In this document: piece after piece, positions 20,537 through 26,399 of the stretch
Position numbering within the stretch: position 1 is the stretch's first letter
Layout of the letters: every line of letters starts with the position of its first letter
Source: a virus
Length of the DNA stretch: 40,071 bases
Reading direction: 5' to 3' (one strand)
UHGV virus genome: UHGV-2079066
Notes under the pieces: model-generated
Databases searched by the model: none
Seen by the model: the letters and a program-made list of their open reading frames with translations, nothing else
What the model was told of the DNA's origin: nothing
Program-made: the position numbers and the translations under genes

Positions 20537-20836
20537 CTACGGTCTTGAAGTGCTCACGATGTATGAATCCACCACGCCGTCCTTATTTACTTTGACGACG
20601 AGCGATTTGCCCTGCCCCACGCTGAACGCTGTTGCATGAGCGTAGGTCCAACCATAAATCTTATTGCCCTCGGAATCGGCAGTTACTGAGGTTGGCTTAC
20701 CGAACTTCTGCAAAACAGCCTGCTCAGTCGTAACCCCCTTTTGGATTGAGGTGACATCTGCTTCCGAAAAGTCTTTACCCACCGTCGCGCAACCGACCAG
20801 ACCCAAAGCAATGACACCCAGAATTGTCTTTTTCAT
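20537..20836 (-). CDS. outer-membrane lipoprotein, SmpA/OmlA (BamE-like) family; moron
   Basis: seen: signal peptide plus lipobox LVGC; DVTSIQKGVTTEQAVLQKFGKP resembles recalled BamE motif; AAGGGA SD. Confidence 0.6.
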   Translation of the reverse strand: MKKTILGVIALGLVGCATVGKDFSEADVTSIQKGVTTEQAVLQKFGKPTSVTADSEGNKIYGWTYAHATAFSVGQGKSLVVKVNKDGVVDSYIVSTSRP

Positions 20837-21227: not shown

Positions 21228-21372
21228 ATGACCTCTTGTTAGGTTCATTTTTGTGTTCGAAGTGGCATCAAATTGAGACATAACTCTAATAACTTAAACT
21301 TTCTCATTCTTTAGTATTGATATTGGCCTTAATGGCTCAATGTTTATTAACTCATCAATAAGAGGTTTAATT

Positions 21373-21813
21373 ATGAGCATCGACTATTTAGACGTCCGTA
21401 AGGTTATTAAGTGTGCAGAACACAAAAAGGCTTTAGATGAAAAAGCAATCAAACTTAAGAAAAACGTTATTGACTCATGCAAAGAAAGTTCTTTAACTTC
21501 TAACACCTTGATTTTCAATCAAGATGCAGAAAACAGACTAACCCTAGAACTTTCAACATATGGGTTAGAACTCGTTTTCAATGAGAAACTGGTAGTCATC
21601 AATGAAGCCCCTCTTTTGAAGTTCGTTGCAACTGACTCAACTGATGAAAATAACAAGGAAGTAATTAGCTTCTTTTTAGGTAAAAATGGGTTGGTTTACA
21701 TTGGGGAGTACAAACCTAATCCATCTTATGATTATGAAGATGTTGATCTATTTCTCGATATACTTGAAGCTACATTAAAAGCGCTCAAGTCTTCCGATAA
21801 AATATCCTATTAA
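21373..21813 (+). CDS. hypothetical acidic protein, AT-rich moron on the opposite strand
   Basis: seen: ATG 21373 with AGAGG SD; markedly AT-rich codon usage versus neighbours; convergent with 21859-22089; hairpin 21820-21845 downstream. Confidence 0.55.
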   Translation: MSIDYLDVRKVIKCAEHKKALDEKAIKLKKNVIDSCKESSLTSNTLIFNQDAENRLTLELSTYGLELVFNEKLVVINEAPLLKFVATDSTDENNKEVISFFLGKNGLVYIGEYKPNPSYDYEDVDLFLDILEATLKALKSSDKISY

Positions 21814-21858: not shown

Positions 21859-22089
21859 TTAAGAGAAGGAGAGGCCCAAATTAACCAGTACATCTTTTTT
21901 CTCCTCTATACGCCGATCAAGTTCATCCACTGCATGCGGGCGTATGGCATCAAGAAAGGCATTATCCTGATAGGTCGACTGGATTGTCACCCCAAGTCCG
22001 GCACCGCTTTCCAGTATGCCTTTCTGTCGCTGTAGCTCTTTCATCTCGTTATAGATGTAATGCGCGTCACTTAGGTTCTCTACGTTCAC
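21859..22089 (-). CDS. hypothetical small protein (76 aa)
   Basis: seen: GTG start preceded by GAAGGAG at 7 nt; overlaps 3' end of upstream lipoprotein ORF. Confidence 0.45.
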   Translation of the reverse strand: MNVENLSDAHYIYNEMKELQRQKGILESGAGLGVTIQSTYQDNAFLDAIRPHAVDELDRRIEEKKDVLVNLGLSFS

Positions 22090-22309
22090 GACCTGGCTCC
22101 TTCATGCAGTTAGCCTGCACTGATTTGTTGTGCGCCAATATGTCCCGCTTCGTCTGTTTATCCAGCACGGCAATATCGTGCTCAGTGAGGTAGATGATGC
22201 TCACCCAGTCACAGGCCGTGTCCGTTACTTCAGGTTTTGCGGGTAAATTTTTCGCGCAACTCGCGGTCAACATCGTCATCAGGAAGATGATTAACAGTCT
22301 GCTGTACAT
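22067..22309 (-). CDS. lipoprotein, candidate o-spanin (Rz1-like)
   Basis: seen: signal peptide plus lipobox LTASC; start lies inside the 3' part of the i-spanin-like ORF in another frame. inference: spanin pair from architecture. Confidence 0.5.
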   Translation of the reverse strand: MYSRLLIIFLMTMLTASCAKNLPAKPEVTDTACDWVSIIYLTEHDIAVLDKQTKRDILAHNKSVQANCMKEPGRERREPK

Positions 22310-22499
22310 CCCTGGCTCCTTTTGTTGTTTCTACCCGGCGTTCGGCTACCGCTTCTGTAGCTGCTGCACGCTCTTCAGTGCGTTGCTGGTCCGCTTTTGT
22401 TTCTGCGATACTGGTACCGCGAGATTTACCCAGACCAAAGGCACCTGCAATTGCTGCCAGCGCGGCAACAATCAGGCCGATAATCATTTCAAGTCCCAT
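22230..22499 (-). CDS. candidate i-spanin (Rz-like), N-terminal TM plus charged helix
   Basis: seen: MGLEMIIGLIVAALAAIAGAFGL then Glu/Arg/Ala-rich region; immediately downstream of endolysin. Shorter (89 aa) than typical Rz. Confidence 0.5.
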   Translation of the reverse strand: MGLEMIIGLIVAALAAIAGAFGLGKSRGTSIAETKADQQRTEERAAATEAVAERRVETTKGARDVQQTVNHLPDDDVDRELREKFTRKT

Positions 22500-22506
22500 A
22501 GTGACC

Positions 22507-23121
22507 TCACACCAGTGCGGCTTTAGCTTTGGCGTAACGTTCACGGCGGTCTTTAATGCCGTTCTGCCCGCCGTTAATAATCTGCGTGACGCGTTCCACA
22601 TCCCCCGAATAGAGGAGACAACCGCGTAACGTGAAGTACCATGCCGCCGAACGGGCCGCGTGTCGCTCTTGCGTCAATAGTTCCGGAGTGCTCACAAGGT
22701 CAAGCTTTAGCGCCGTACCGCATTTGGTGTAGTTCTCACGACCAGTGATTTGCAGCAGGCCACGACCGCGATATTTCCAGCCGTCACCCTGGCTGTTATT
22801 CCCCATGCGGTCACCGTAAACCAGATTGGCTATTTGTGGCTGGTGAGCGACCTGTTTACCATCAACACGCCCCAGCATTTCACACTGATACGATGTCAGG
22901 CGATTACCGAAGGTTTTCTTCAGCCCTTCAACCGAGTAGTTAAAACTCTCGGCCAACGAAGTAAAGCCAGCAGACTCATGCCCGACTTGTGCAATGAACA
23001 TAGCCTGATCATTAACCGCTGTAATTCCAAACTCTTTCATTGCCGCGTCAATGTGCGGAAACCAGCGTGCAGAAAGCCCGGCGCTGATACCAGCCGCCTG
23101 CTGAAATTGTGATTGGTTCAT
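22507..23121 (-). CDS. endolysin, glycoside hydrolase family 19 (chitinase-like lysozyme)
   Basis: seen: ...FIAQVGHESAGFTSL...GRGLLQITGRENY...; no N-terminal signal-anchor segment. Confidence 0.85.
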   Translation of the reverse strand: MNQSQFQQAAGISAGLSARWFPHIDAAMKEFGITAVNDQAMFIAQVGHESAGFTSLAESFNYSVEGLKKTFGNRLTSYQCEMLGRVDGKQVAHQPQIANLVYGDRMGNNSQGDGWKYRGRGLLQITGRENYTKCGTALKLDLVSTPELLTQERHAARSAAWYFTLRGCLLYSGDVERVTQIINGGQNGIKDRRERYAKAKAALV

Positions 23122-23402
23122 TATTGCCTCAGATGATCAACCAGGCGTGCCACGTTGCCTCTGACGGCGACCAGCACGGACAGGAAAATAATGTTGGCCC
23201 CGATAGTGGCCCACGATGAATAAGGGTAGATACCGCACAGATACGCCAGCGGTACGGCGCTATAAATGACCGTAAGCAGCCAGGCTAAGCGAGATATCCA
23301 CGGTCGATGTCTGGAGTCACCGCGACGGTAAAACATCAGGGTCAGCACTACCCCAGCGCAAAGAAGCGCATTGATTGTTGCCGATGGGTCATTTAGTACC
23401 AC
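23121..23402 (-). CDS. holin-like membrane protein (second holin or antiholin)
   Basis: seen: 93 aa with 2-3 hydrophobic segments, directly upstream of and overlapping the endolysin start. Confidence 0.55.
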   Translation of the reverse strand: MVLNDPSATINALLCAGVVLTLMFYRRGDSRHRPWISRLAWLLTVIYSAVPLAYLCGIYPYSSWATIGANIIFLSVLVAVRGNVARLVDHLRQ

Positions 23403-23775
23403 CTGAACCTCCCCGGCGCGTTATCAGCGCCACCAGCGAGCCGACATCCTGGTTGTTCAGGAACGTCAGGATTTTGACAGCTAAAGCCGAAACGATTACG
23501 GCACCGATGGCATCCAGAGGCTTATCACTGTAACCAGTCCAGTCAGCCAGCTTTGAACCCACCAGCCCTGAGCAGATGATCCCGGCGATGTAGGACACGA
23601 CAAAATACGCCAGCCGACGCGTTGCACTAAGGTCCGCAGCTGTTGCAATGTAAAATACAGCTCCGGCAAATGCGCCAAACACCACGCCGTAATCGGTTCC
23701 GGACAGAAATCCATAGACGCTAGCTCCCGTCAGGACACCACCAGCCAGCCCAGTACCGGAAATCGGATCGGACAT
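23389..23775 (-). CDS. holin
   Basis: seen: 128 aa, Gly/Ala-rich TM helices, first gene of lysis cassette downstream of a terminator. Confidence 0.6.
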   Translation of the reverse strand: MSDPISGTGLAGGVLTGASVYGFLSGTDYGVVFGAFAGAVFYIATAADLSATRRLAYFVVSYIAGIICSGLVGSKLADWTGYSDKPLDAIGAVIVSALAVKILTFLNNQDVGSLVALITRRGGSGGTK

Positions 23776-23820
23776 TTAGCCCCCTCTTTATTGCTGTGAG
23801 TCCTCTCAGAACGAGGGGAA

Positions 23821-23846
23821 TAAAAAAGGCCACCATCTGGTGACCT
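23821..23846. terminator. bidirectional hairpin terminator between moron and holin
   Basis: seen: ggccaccatctggtgacc flanked by A6 on one side and ttcgttaatttt on the other. Confidence 0.55.
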
Positions 23847-23863
23847 TCGTTAATTTTGAGTTG

Positions 23864-24400
23864 TTACAACGATCTAATCTCTTTCGATAAACAGTCCAAC
23901 ATTTTATTAGCCTCCTTATCAAAATTATGACCAGCGTTTAGAATTATATTCTTCGCCAATTTCTTATCGTCAACTTCACCTGACTGTATTTTGAAGAAAA
24001 CAGAATTGGCTGGTTTCAGCAATTTTCTAGATTCATCAAACATAACGCTAATCTCAGGAAAATAAACACCAGAGATTAAAATAATTCTATCACCAACTCC
24101 TTTATACTCAGGGTTTTTACTGAGAATTTCGTCTGATTTATCGCCAATGTCCTCAGATTTAAAACACCCATCAATACAATTTATCCAGCTCATATGATTG
24201 GCAAAAAGCAATTTTTTATAAAGTATTAATGCCTCATAAAGCTGTTCACCCTTTTCAATTTTCCTTCTATTTCTTTCTGAGCGCCACTCATGCGACTGCC
24301 TACTACTGTTCTGGAGGTAACTTGTAAGAGAAGTTATCAATGTACCCACAAAAATCCCCAAAGCAGCAATTAATGCAACATTTTCTTTAGTCAGTTCCAT
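23864..24400 (-). CDS. hypothetical single-pass membrane protein, AT-rich moron between Q and holin
   Basis: seen: ATG 24400 preceded by GGTGA; MELTKENVALIAALGIFVGTLITSLTSYL (TM) then ~150 aa soluble domain; low GC. Track ORF extends 38 codons upstream across a terminator hairpin. Confidence 0.55.
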   Translation of the reverse strand: MELTKENVALIAALGIFVGTLITSLTSYLQNSSRQSHEWRSERNRRKIEKGEQLYEALILYKKLLFANHMSWINCIDGCFKSEDIGDKSDEILSKNPEYKGVGDRIILISGVYFPEISVMFDESRKLLKPANSVFFKIQSGEVDDKKLAKNIILNAGHNFDKEANKMLDCLSKEIRSL

Positions 24401-24411
24401 ACTATCACCAT

Positions 24412-24434
24412 AAAAAAACCCCACCGAGGTGAGG
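24412..24434 (-). terminator. tR'-like intrinsic terminator downstream of candidate late promoter
   Basis: seen: minus strand CCUCACCUCGGUGGGG followed by U7. Confidence 0.5.
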
Positions 24435-24452
24435 TTATCATAGTGATCGATA

Positions 24453-24480
24453 GTTATACAAAGCCCATCATTGATGTCAA
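24453..24480 (-). promoter_or_regulatory. candidate late promoter (pR'-like): -35 TTGACA, 16-nt spacer, -10 TATAAC
   Basis: seen: TTGACA at 24480-24475 and TATAAC at 24458-24453 on minus strand, immediately downstream of Q. inference: Q-modified readthrough. Confidence 0.4.
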
Positions 24481-24523
24481 ATATACACAAATACGGCAAC
24501 ATTGCAAACATCATGACGCTAAA

Positions 24524-25354
24524 TTACGCGATATTTATCACATCTTCACTTTTAGTCACCCGATTCAGTTGAGAGCTTGAATAACTCTCCTCCTGGAAAC
24601 ATTTGGTCACCAGGCTTTCATAGAATGGTTTCCAGCTATAACGCCACGTTCGGTCAGGCAGACTCGGCAACTCAGAAAAAACACCTCGATAGGCAACCGA
24701 TGATTTTGGCCTGCTGTATCCCCGCCCTTCGCAGCGCTTACATTCTTTGTAAACTGGTACGCCCTGCAGTTCTGTCGCTTTACGGTCAACCGTCTTGCCA
24801 GTTCCGCCACACTGGCATCGCTTACTTAACTTTCCGGTACCATGGCATCGCGAACATAAACTTTGCTCGGAGTCAGTTACTTCTCGCTTTACCTCAAAGT
24901 CAGATGGTGACTGTCTCAGGTCTTTTGCCCATTGTGGCAATCGCATTGTGTAATGGCTTTTAGTCACGGTTTTAGTGGTTGTAAGCAACCCTTTACCACT
25001 ACATTTTGGGCATGCCACACAATCAGCTGCTGATGAGGAATAATCGTTATAGGCAAACCGGGCAAGGATACGCATGCAGAGGGGAAACTTTTTCCCTGAT
25101 GCTTTGCGAATGGCCATGGGCGCATGCTCTTTCGCGTACTCAGTTAGCCAGGTTATTGACGCCTCTCTGTCCTGGCTGCTGATACCAGCTTTACCTAAAA
25201 ACATTGCCAGCCCGATCCCCGCATCGGCCTGAGTCATCCCCAATGCAGCCATTACATCAGTAACCGTCAGTTGTTCACTGGCTGTCGCTCTACTGGTATC
25301 TGATATGTGCATGCCTTTAGGCGCAAAAAACTTTAAAACATTGTCCAGATTCAT
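24524..25354 (-). CDS. late antiterminator Q-like protein with four CxxCxGxG zinc-finger repeats
   Basis: seen: ATG 25354 with GGAG SD; CPKCSGKG, CSRCHGTGK, CQCGGTGK, CKRCEGRG; located just upstream of the late promoter and lysis genes. Confidence 0.55.
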   Translation of the reverse strand: MNLDNVLKFFAPKGMHISDTSRATASEQLTVTDVMAALGMTQADAGIGLAMFLGKAGISSQDREASITWLTEYAKEHAPMAIRKASGKKFPLCMRILARFAYNDYSSSAADCVACPKCSGKGLLTTTKTVTKSHYTMRLPQWAKDLRQSPSDFEVKREVTDSEQSLCSRCHGTGKLSKRCQCGGTGKTVDRKATELQGVPVYKECKRCEGRGYSRPKSSVAYRGVFSELPSLPDRTWRYSWKPFYESLVTKCFQEESYSSSQLNRVTKSEDVINIA

Positions 25355-25370
25355 ACGGTCTCCATACTTC

Positions 25371-26399
25371 TTAAGCTTTCGCAATTACGCCGATCGCCAG
25401 CGCCCGATCCATAAAACGCAGTAGCAGCTCAAGCTGCGTACCATGCTTCTGCTCGAATGCTGGTACATCGGCGTGTAACTCGTCGTGGCACTCTCTGCAC
25501 AGAGGGATCACGAAGAGGTCATGGGCTTTTGTTGCTGTACCACCCATACCGTGCCCTACGATATGGTGCGGATCATCTGCTGGCCGTCGGCAACACTCAC
25601 AGGGTTGTGTTTTAACCCAGCGGGTGTACGTCTCATTTATCCAGCGGCGACGTTTTGGCCTGAGCATAAAAGACTCTGGCGACTCCGGATCAACAGAGAG
25701 CGTGAGGATCTTCTTCGCCTTCTCCTGCACAAGTCTGGTTGCTGACGAGGAAGGCACTATGTCGCTTTCCCTCATGACAGAACGGATCTTCTCATCCGGA
25801 AGGCGCAACCCTTTGTGCGCAACGCTTTCCGGAATAACATCAGCCAGGTCGTTTCTGACCATCCACCAGCACAGTTCAGGAAGCGTCAGGATATGCGACT
25901 CGGGAAAACCAGAATCACGCCGAATGACTTCCAGAATCCAGGATACCAGGTTTCCGGCCGCTATACCTGCAAGCTGTTCGGTATGCTGCCCCGACAAAGT
26001 GTGATCGCAATGCCAGCACAGGCGAATACTTCCTGGTGGGTGCCGCATTGTTGTGAAGTTCTTGTCGTGCCACGTTGAATGTGGCCACTGGCATTCAAAC
26101 CGATTACTCAACCATTGCTCAAGGGAAGGAAGCCCACCGGCACGCTGAATAACCCTCTCATTCTCGAAGACCTGACGCATTACCGGATCATCAGCTAGCG
26201 GCTGAATGGCTGCCGGAACAGCCCCGGTACTGAATGACGCCATTTCTTCTGGTTCAGGCTCGAGCAGAACGCGACCACGCATGAAGAGGTGCATCAGTTC
26301 CGTACCGGGACGGAACAGCACAATCCCCATACGATGGGCGATCTCGGGGGTAAGCAGAGCTCTCACGCGACCTGCCCCCTGGCAATGTGTTCTGCCCAC
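25371..26399 (-). CDS. DUF968-like protein with C-terminal HNH-like Cys/His motif
   Basis: seen: ...CECCRRPADDPHHIVGHGMGG...CRECHDELH; 342-codon ORF. Start is uncertain (overlaps upstream gene). Confidence 0.55.
   Translation of the reverse strand: MGRTHCQGAGRVRALLTPEIAHRMGIVLFRPGTELMHLFMRGRVLLEPEPEEMASFSTGAVPAAIQPLADDPVMRQVFENERVIQRAGGLPSLEQWLSNRFECQWPHSTWHDKNFTTMRHPPGSIRLCWHCDHTLSGQHTEQLAGIAAGNLVSWILEVIRRDSGFPESHILTLPELCWWMVRNDLADVIPESVAHKGLRLPDEKIRSVMRESDIVPSSSATRLVQEKAKKILTLSVDPESPESFMLRPKRRRWINETYTRWVKTQPCECCRRPADDPHHIVGHGMGGTATKAHDLFVIPLCRECHDELHADVPAFEQKHGTQLELLLRFMDRALAIGVIAKA

Follow-up and report, generated by a model that had tools for sequence, protein, structure and literature searches.

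Organization of the locus

The virus genome UHGV-2079066, a stretch of 40,071 nucleotides (nt) that we refer to in its entirety as the window, carries an AT-rich open reading frame (ORF) of 178 codons, hereafter the cargo gene, between its late antiterminator gene Q and its lysis genes. All of these genes lie on the minus strand, in the order Q, a tR'-like terminator, the cargo gene, a second terminator, and a holin gene. The initial annotation had described just such an AT-rich gene between Q and the holin, flanked by two competent intrinsic terminators, and every one of these elements was found at or near the positions that it gave. The comparisons reported here point most probably to a late cargo gene that depends on Q for its expression. 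Its host element is clearly a lambdoid prophage, with tail and head genes to the left of the locus, a cI/cro region at ~30.8 kb, and an integrase at 37.3-38.4 kb. The following features are needed for the argument.

24524-25354, minus strand: late-gene antiterminator Q with a DnaJ-like CXXCXGXG zinc motif (Pfam PF03589 Antiterm, E 3e-46)
24480-24507, minus strand: predicted pR'-like late promoter, with a -35 box TTGCAA at 24507-24502, a 16-nt spacer, and a -10 box TATATT at 24485-24480 (consensus scan and alignment)
24464-24472, minus strand: AATGATGGG, a putative -10-like sigma70 pause element plus GGG (invariant in a nine-sequence alignment)
24453-24480, minus strand: the hexamers TTGACA (24480-24475) and TATAAC (24458-24453) of the initial annotation, with a 16-nt spacer, judged non-functional as a promoter
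24404-24447, minus strand: predicted extended hairpin enclosing tR' (RNAalifold consensus and RNAfold)
24412-24436, minus strand: putative tR'-equivalent intrinsic terminator, with an 8-bp stem, a CUCG loop, and U7 (terminator scan)
23864-24400, minus strand: cargo gene, encoding a 178-amino-acid (aa) predicted single-pass inner-membrane protein with a predicted cytoplasmic four-helix bundle (six equal-length alleles, AlphaFold2)
23819-23848, minus strand: second intrinsic terminator, just upstream of the holin leader (10-bp stem at 23848-23825 followed by T6, -15.2 kcal/mol)
23389-23775, minus strand: Phage_holin_8 holin (Pfam E 2e-34)
23121-23402, minus strand: Phage_holin_3_7 gene (Pfam E 8e-20)
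22507-23121, minus strand: GH19 endolysin (Pfam E 5.5e-08)

As called mechanically, the Q ORF spans 24524-25384 from a TTG start at 25384; the RefSeq-equivalent start gives 24524-25354, and the identical gene in NZ_LR536430 bears the RefSeq label 'antitermination protein'. Between Q and the cargo gene lie 123 nt of intergenic DNA, and downstream of the cargo gene the lysis cassette occupies 22507-23775 (minus strand). The GC content of the cargo ORF is 34%, as against 52-54% for Q and the lysis genes.

Predicted late promoter and pause element, and flanking terminators

The spacer between Q and the cargo gene was aligned for nine sequences: the window, four other gene-carrying loci, three gene-less relatives with a PF03589-type Q (Klebsiella phage Kp4866-6, HK225, and locus L018), and lambda. 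The motif AA(C/T)GATGGG is invariant in all nine, lambda included, and the -35 and -10 boxes of lambda pR' align column for column with TTGCAA and TATATT of the window and with those of its seven Q relatives. The window promoter also matches the one annotated in P22 as 'P late or P R'', for which the RNA 5' nucleotide is given as the first A of AACGAT; in the window, the late transcript is predicted to start at about A24472. By homology, AATGATGGG at 24472-24464 would be a sigma70 pause element and the loading site of Q. Lambda pR' has a -10-like pause-inducing sequence with an associated GGG discriminator at +7 to +9 (PMC5001585).

This assignment displaces the late promoter proposed in the initial annotation, TTGACA/TATAAC, which the comparison rejects in favor of the conserved promoter ~25 bp further upstream. 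What had been read as a -35 box corresponds to the conserved TTGAC that lambda and P22 also carry after their -10 box. The pair of hexamers is not conserved, TTTTCC/TCTAAC standing in its place in L016 and TTGTAT replacing TTGACA in L014, and TATAAC lacks the final T demanded by the promoter scan. The late-promoter core of this PF03589-type Q phage (24464-24507, minus strand) can be aligned with lambda (L034) and P22 (L036) through the -10 box, TTGAC, and AACGATGG; the one difference from the pR' promoters of these two phages lies in the spacer that joins the -35 and -10 boxes. Lambda Q binds in that spacer, and the Q proteins of lambda and P22 belong to a Q family other than PF03589. A corrected late-promoter assignment for a phage with a PF03589-type Q is thus one by-product of the analysis.

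The first terminator reads AACCUCACCUCGGUGGGGUU followed by U7, and its hairpin has a predicted stability of -11.8 kcal/mol. Seven terminator-like sites were found in 23300-25000, compared with 1.6 +/- 1.4 in shuffled sequences, and the pair that flanks the cargo gene are the best two. The tR' annotated in P22 extends from +31 to +59 relative to the late start, and the hairpin and U-tract of the window from about +37 to +61; in gene-less relatives, too, a terminator lies equally far from the promoter. Among Q relatives with and without the cargo gene, homology stops just past GGGCTTTGTAT, after which all of them have a terminator 35-60 nt from the start. Judged by its position, then, the first terminator is the equivalent of tR', and the tR'-like label of the initial annotation agrees with the placement of tR' in P22. 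We considered whether this tR' might be unusually weak, and leaky enough to allow expression in a lysogen, and rejected the idea: its -11.8 kcal/mol falls within the range of relatives' tR' hairpins (-10.6 to -21.7 kcal/mol). The strong second terminator that had been noted before the holin is likewise present, with its 10 bp and T6. It precedes the Phage_holin_8-type holin regardless of cargo (L022, L023, and L024), with a stem whose sequence varies and whose pairing is kept, and is as much a part of the slot as of the cargo gene, if not more.

Only 17 nt separate the U-tract of tR' from the ATG of the cargo gene, and the promoter scan found no promoter-like site between the two. In L010, a variant with a lambda-type Q, the 170 nt between tR' and the gene likewise hold no promoter-like sites. 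Because of the 17-nt gap, transcripts of the gene would be expected to come through tR'.

A predicted extended hairpin around tR'

In the predicted RNA fold, the hairpin of tR' is enclosed by an extended one (24404-24447), in which AUCACUAUGA (24447-24438) pairs with UUAUGGUGAU (24413-24404) to form a lower stem, and the ribosome-binding site of the cargo gene, GGUGAU (24409-24404), is paired within that stem. The minimum free energy of the leader is -27 kcal/mol (z score -4.0). All 18 pairs of the extended hairpin are kept in five loci, where the changes comprise a single A-U to U-A swap and three that wobble pairing accommodates, and the unpaired stretch just upstream of it varies freely. 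Covariation proper amounts to one compensatory pair in five sequences, a small sample in which 54 of 500 shuffles do equally well. In seven of eight leaders the ribosome-binding site has a mean pairing probability of 0.83-0.99; for three leader types, only 3-7 of 300 shuffles of the upstream sequence reach the observed value. Relatives whose proteins have diverged to 34-42% identity employ other pairing strands in other registers: L042 pairs its ribosome-binding site via UGUUCACCGU, 30 nt upstream of a different hairpin. In L041, the tR' stem is altered on both arms (ACUCAC/GUGAGU). These folding models are suggestive of a paired ribosome-binding site that damps translation.

A -10-like TATGAT (24442-24437, minus strand) is conserved inside the 5' strand of the extended hairpin. 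A transcript arising from it, ~7 nt downstream, would lose the 5' arm of the terminator together with the pairing strand.

The cargo ORF and its start codon

Six independent locus types carry the cargo gene; at 62-90% identity, their alleles are all 537 nt long, with zero indels. The ratio of nonsynonymous to synonymous substitution rates (dN/dS) lies at 0.07-0.21, most pairs being saturated at synonymous sites. The cargo ORF is a real gene under purifying selection. Were it instead an open frame arisen by chance or the remains of a decaying gene amid AT-rich filler DNA, its failure to match any family and the disagreement among public start calls (216, 186, and 178 aa) would be readily understood, but a remnant would hardly keep equal length without indels or stops across six alleles with as many as 38% of residues changed, at a dN/dS of ~0.1, nor would it have homologs down to 20% identity that share EKGEEL, YFP, and LKPAN, or a confident structure prediction. 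That explanation, scarcely credible, is effectively refuted already.

The 178-aa start, which is also called by the RefSeq pipeline, is to be preferred over longer public calls, as the initial annotation had it. Public calls for the family place the start upstream (216 or 186 aa; P0001, P0002, P0004, and P0006; region 23864-24514, minus strand), translating the U-tract, as 'FFYG', and the promoter. The 216-aa version, from the ATG at 24514, was rejected, since its extension spans promoter and terminator and relatives do not preserve it as an open frame. A corrected gene start is a second by-product of the comparison.

The gene is present in 2 of 5426 complete E. coli genomes, which are also 2 of the 182 that share the 5' region of the holin. 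The initial annotation had raised absence or disruption of the ORF in close relatives as grounds for doubt. The absence is real, extending to 180 of these 182 genomes, and is expected because the gene is an add-on; disruption is not seen, the ORF being intact wherever it is present.

Occupants of the slot and distribution of the family

Other E. coli prophages with the same holin carry different cargo between tR' and the second terminator. In E. coli B27 (L022, 3615-4463) this is a DUF6602 protein that matches NucC-like PD-(D/E)xK nuclease models at E 2e-30, and other E. coli occupants are unrelated hypothetical proteins of 249 and 261 aa. DNA methyltransferase genes lie between Q and the holin in Klebsiella phage Kp4866-6 (L020, 4383-5462) and in a Pantoea prophage (L019, 2287-3327). 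The Q-to-holin slot is a general cargo site bracketed by two terminators.

Relatives of the cargo protein are scarce. A tblastn search of 50,697 phage genomes gave a best match of only E 0.8, and the same result disposes of the candidate identity with the phi80 Tai/Ati system, which shares its slot with the distant clade described below. Two scans of 185,579 species-representative genomes found no relatives; the broad family alignment was too diverse for such a scan. An exhaustive HMMER scan of 1.84 billion representatives yielded 19 relatives, and the family comprises ~60 clusters among 5.8 billion; in profile searches of the latter, none of the matches listed (36 per search) had a Pfam domain or an informative name. 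Members have been seen only in lambdoid prophages of Enterobacterales.

Genomic context was resolved for ~28 locus types, and in all examined loci the family gene is co-oriented with the late operon and adjoins the lysis cassette. The clade of the window's own protein (N-terminus MELTKEN) lies between Q and the lysis genes in nine of nine locus types, directly after Q except in L043, and occurs with a PF03589 or a lambda-type Q and with holins of the Phage_holin_8/3_7, 3_1, 3_3, or 2_1 types. The family as a whole is seen with Phage_holin_8/3_7, 3_1, 3_3, and 2_1/2_3, with no tie to one holin family. In a distant clade (20-28% identity), all 19 loci place the gene between the spanins, which it directly follows, and the terminase; morons and defense genes have been reported from the region upstream of the packaging module (PMC11364771). 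Among distant members, a -10-like box whose end lies 27-33 nt ahead of the ATG is seen in three of six loci by scan, or five of six by eye, and a strong terminator directly after the stop codon in three to four of six, which is the classic layout of a self-contained moron. The alleles measured are poor in GC, at 33-39% in 16 loci and 33-36% in the six alleles of the window's own clade.

Predicted structure and topology of the cargo protein

AlphaFold2, supplied with a 36-sequence alignment, models the cargo protein with a pLDDT (predicted local distance difference test) of 93.7. A long helix, residues 5-76, contains the hydrophobic segment 8-27, and helices 82-95, 102-113, 115-140, and 146-177 pack against it; the predicted fold is an up-down helical bundle of the generic four-helix type. 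The single-pass membrane protein of the initial annotation thus stands, with one hydrophobic helix at residues 8-27. Invariant or nearly invariant residues include K50, G51, and E52, within the motif EKGEEL, as well as Y113, F114, and P115; LKPAN is shared by the near clade.

Across 45 homologs there is one hydrophobic segment only, with a mean of 0.5 Lys plus Arg residues on its N-terminal side and 4.4 on its C-terminal side, a distribution that predicts an N-out/C-in topology and a cytoplasmic bundle. The product is likely to be a cytoplasm-facing, membrane-anchored helical protein. The reverse orientation (N-in/C-out), with a chemoreceptor-like periplasmic bundle that acts there, for instance to bar the DNA of superinfecting phages from the cell, is very unlikely: it runs counter to the 0.5 versus 4.4 charge distribution, and no match to Pfam 4HB_MCP was found. 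The resemblance to the 4HB_MCP sensor domains of chemoreceptors and histidine kinases is one of fold only, at 5-12% identity, and is no better than the resemblance to designed bundles. Differences from that type include the lack of a second membrane helix and of a signaling module as well as the opposite predicted topology.

The initial annotation did not recognize the protein, and neither does any library tried. Searches of the cargo protein and 22 homologs against Pfam, NCBIfam, PHROGs, and PADLOC returned nothing above threshold; the best PHROGs matches, at E ~0.01, are to families of unknown function, and a profile search of Protein Data Bank sequences returned only Vip3, at E 0.14. RefSeq names the identical 178-aa protein 'heme biosynthesis HemY N-terminal domain-containing protein'. 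The underlying candidate, HemY_N (PF07219), was rejected: it scores 17.5 bits against a cut-off of 31, covers residues 8-50 only, that is, the membrane helix and a charged stretch, and is matched by 2 of 22 homologs. On these scores the HemY name is unfounded.

Neighboring features

After the endolysin (22067-22601, minus strand) lie a membrane-anchored, charged ORF at 22230-22601, with a likely true start at MGLEMII..., and, overlapping it, a lipoprotein-like ORF at 22067-22309 (minus strand) with an LTASC lipobox. The two look like a spanin pair; neither matches a spanin family, and DUF6779 alone appears, below threshold. A second AT-rich ORF, of 157 aa (21340-21813, plus strand), lies between the lysis cassette and the terminase in a region of 31-37% GC. 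It has no significant match in Pfam, PHROGs, NCBIfam, or PADLOC and looks like another unannotated cargo gene, in a post-lysis slot. The same post-lysis cargo region contains a 99-aa ORF (20537-20836, minus strand) with a lipoprotein-type N-terminus (MKKTILGVIALGLVGC...).

In E. coli VREC0761 (NZ_LR536430; L001, 866623-907623), an identical module of Q, cargo, and lysis genes abuts another antiterminator, along with three tRNA genes and an additional holin/lysozyme set. This arrangement points to a prophage of recombinant or tandem origin, and its second-Q junction recurs in E. coli strain FAM21845 (L023).

Expression and possible function

We posit that a horizontally acquired accessory (moron) gene was inserted directly behind the tR' of a lambdoid late operon. 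In the lysogen the gene would be essentially off. Q would modify RNA polymerase at the conserved pR'/pause site, making the cargo the first product of the late transcript, and the pairing of the ribosome-binding site into the base of the extended tR' hairpin would damp its translation. Because there is no room for a separate promoter between tR' and the ATG, Q-dependent read-through, as the initial annotation predicted, is the most economical account of expression, and we hold this regulatory architecture, as read from the sequence, with considerable confidence. Expression in the lysogen, in the service of conversion or exclusion, could instead come from a weak TATGAT promoter with a start at ~24430, in the 5' arm of tR', or from leakage through tR'. 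The invariance of TCACTATGATA in six leaders despite saturated synonymous sites in the gene could be taken to favor such a promoter, as could the -10-like box and terminator of distant members, the classic moron layout; the second terminator would then keep these transcripts out of the holin. Yet neither a -35 match nor an extended -10 can be read in the sequence before TATGAT, on which account we rank this start as a rival. The bases of TATGAT are explained by pairing with the ribosome-binding site, and in L041 and L042 they are replaced by other pairing strands; tR' is as stable as the tR' of relatives; and the second terminator is always part of the leader of this holin, irrespective of which cargo is present. 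Lysogenic expression appears unlikely.

As to what the product does, our preferred reading is that it is a dispensable membrane-acting accessory that interferes with competitors, such as other infecting phages or satellites. The accessory role is favored by the AT-rich composition and rarity of the gene, by the other occupants of its slots, and by the moron layout of distant relatives, and small inner-membrane exclusion proteins provide a precedent. A core role in lysis is disfavored by the presence in the window of two holin-family genes, an endolysin, and a putative spanin pair. Taken together, a late-operon moron with a competitor-interfering product is the best overall explanation we can offer, although our confidence in it falls somewhat short of even; the narrower proposition, a membrane-level interference or exclusion factor that is no part of the lysis machinery, is more tentative still. 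Several observations weigh against this reading. Silence in the lysogen is atypical of prophage defense genes, which normally protect the lysogen, and strict adjacency to lysis genes combined with tight translational control would also fit a role in lysis timing. No family in PADLOC-DB v2 was matched even at E <= 1, and hhalign comparisons with the exclusion proteins P22 SieA, P22 SieB, and HK97 gp15 gave probabilities of 0.6%, 0.2%, and 0.4%, respectively, that is, no detectable similarity. As regards the translational brake, L041 lacks pairing of the ribosome-binding site and in L040 the pairing is not significant (300 shuffles).

The product could alternatively be a modulator of the lysis clock, delaying or sharpening holin triggering in the manner of an antiholin, with structure-limited translation setting its dose. 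At each of the ~28 loci examined the family gene stands directly before or after the lysis cassette on the late-operon strand, its product is a predicted membrane protein, and in the window's own clade it shows no separate promoter and a predicted pairing of its ribosome-binding site. RNA structure controls the translation of lambda S, a precedent that the pairing in the cargo leader recalls. Such a role sits poorly with the distribution of the gene, which is found in only 2 of the 182 E. coli genomes that have this holin 5' region in common. Its partners include no fewer than four unrelated holin families and three types of endolysin, whereas antiholins are normally holin specific. Both positions occupied by the family are general lambdoid cargo slots. 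The protein matches no lysis family in Pfam or PHROGs, holins and spanins included, and shows no relation to the Rz-like protein of P22 (hhalign probability 0.1%). We consider a lysis-clock modulator improbable.

Interference with competitors, our preferred reading, has a more ambitious form: the family might represent a new single-gene, membrane-anchored phage-versus-phage system, acting by exclusion or by interference with lysis. Members of the window's own clade would be tied to the Q switch of the prophage through their fusion to tR', the ribosome-binding site being concealed in an extension of the terminator hairpin. This is a long shot. If true, the protein would be made only, and sparingly, after commitment to lysis, in a system that is armed by induction and does not protect the lysogen. 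If the wiring alone is right, the locus would be a compact natural case of cargo that depends on Q antitermination, has no promoter of its own, and carries a translational brake built from a terminator. The orphan family is unannotated, and a straightforward screen for phenotypes could reveal what all of its members do.

Comparison with known systems

The cargo itself is uncharacterized and new, and the kind of slot that it occupies is well known. Embedding of a ribosome-binding site in a terminator structure is unusual, and is suggestively supported here. The arrangement around the gene is that of P22 and lambda late control (P late/pR', qut, and tR'): the -35 and -10 boxes, the TTGAC that follows, and AACGATGG at +1 all align with the window. 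P22 differs in encoding nothing directly behind tR', and the window differs in its PF03589-family Q and in the spacer between the -35 and -10 boxes. With morons of the HK97 gp15 type, in which a promoter, a gene, and a terminator form a unit whose inner-membrane product mediates superinfection exclusion, the cargo gene shares AT-richness, sporadic occurrence, a small membrane protein as product, and a 3' terminator. In contrast to HK97 gp15, the window gene starts too close to tR' for a promoter to fit between them, and no sequence relation between the two proteins was found.

The closest parallel in position is that of the Shiga toxin phages. As the initial annotation had recognized, the cargo gene occupies the slot that these phages use for stx. 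In both cases foreign cargo lies downstream of Q, the late promoter, and tR' and upstream of the holin, on the strand of the late operon, and high expression would be expected only after antitermination by Q. A connection of stx with Q is noted in PMC3430580. The two arrangements part company in the cargo and its immediate leader: instead of a secreted AB5 toxin, the window would encode a small membrane-anchored helical protein, and it does so with no evident separate promoter and no tRNA genes accompanying the cargo, from a start codon 17 nt past the U-tract, with the ribosome-binding site inside the predicted extended hairpin.

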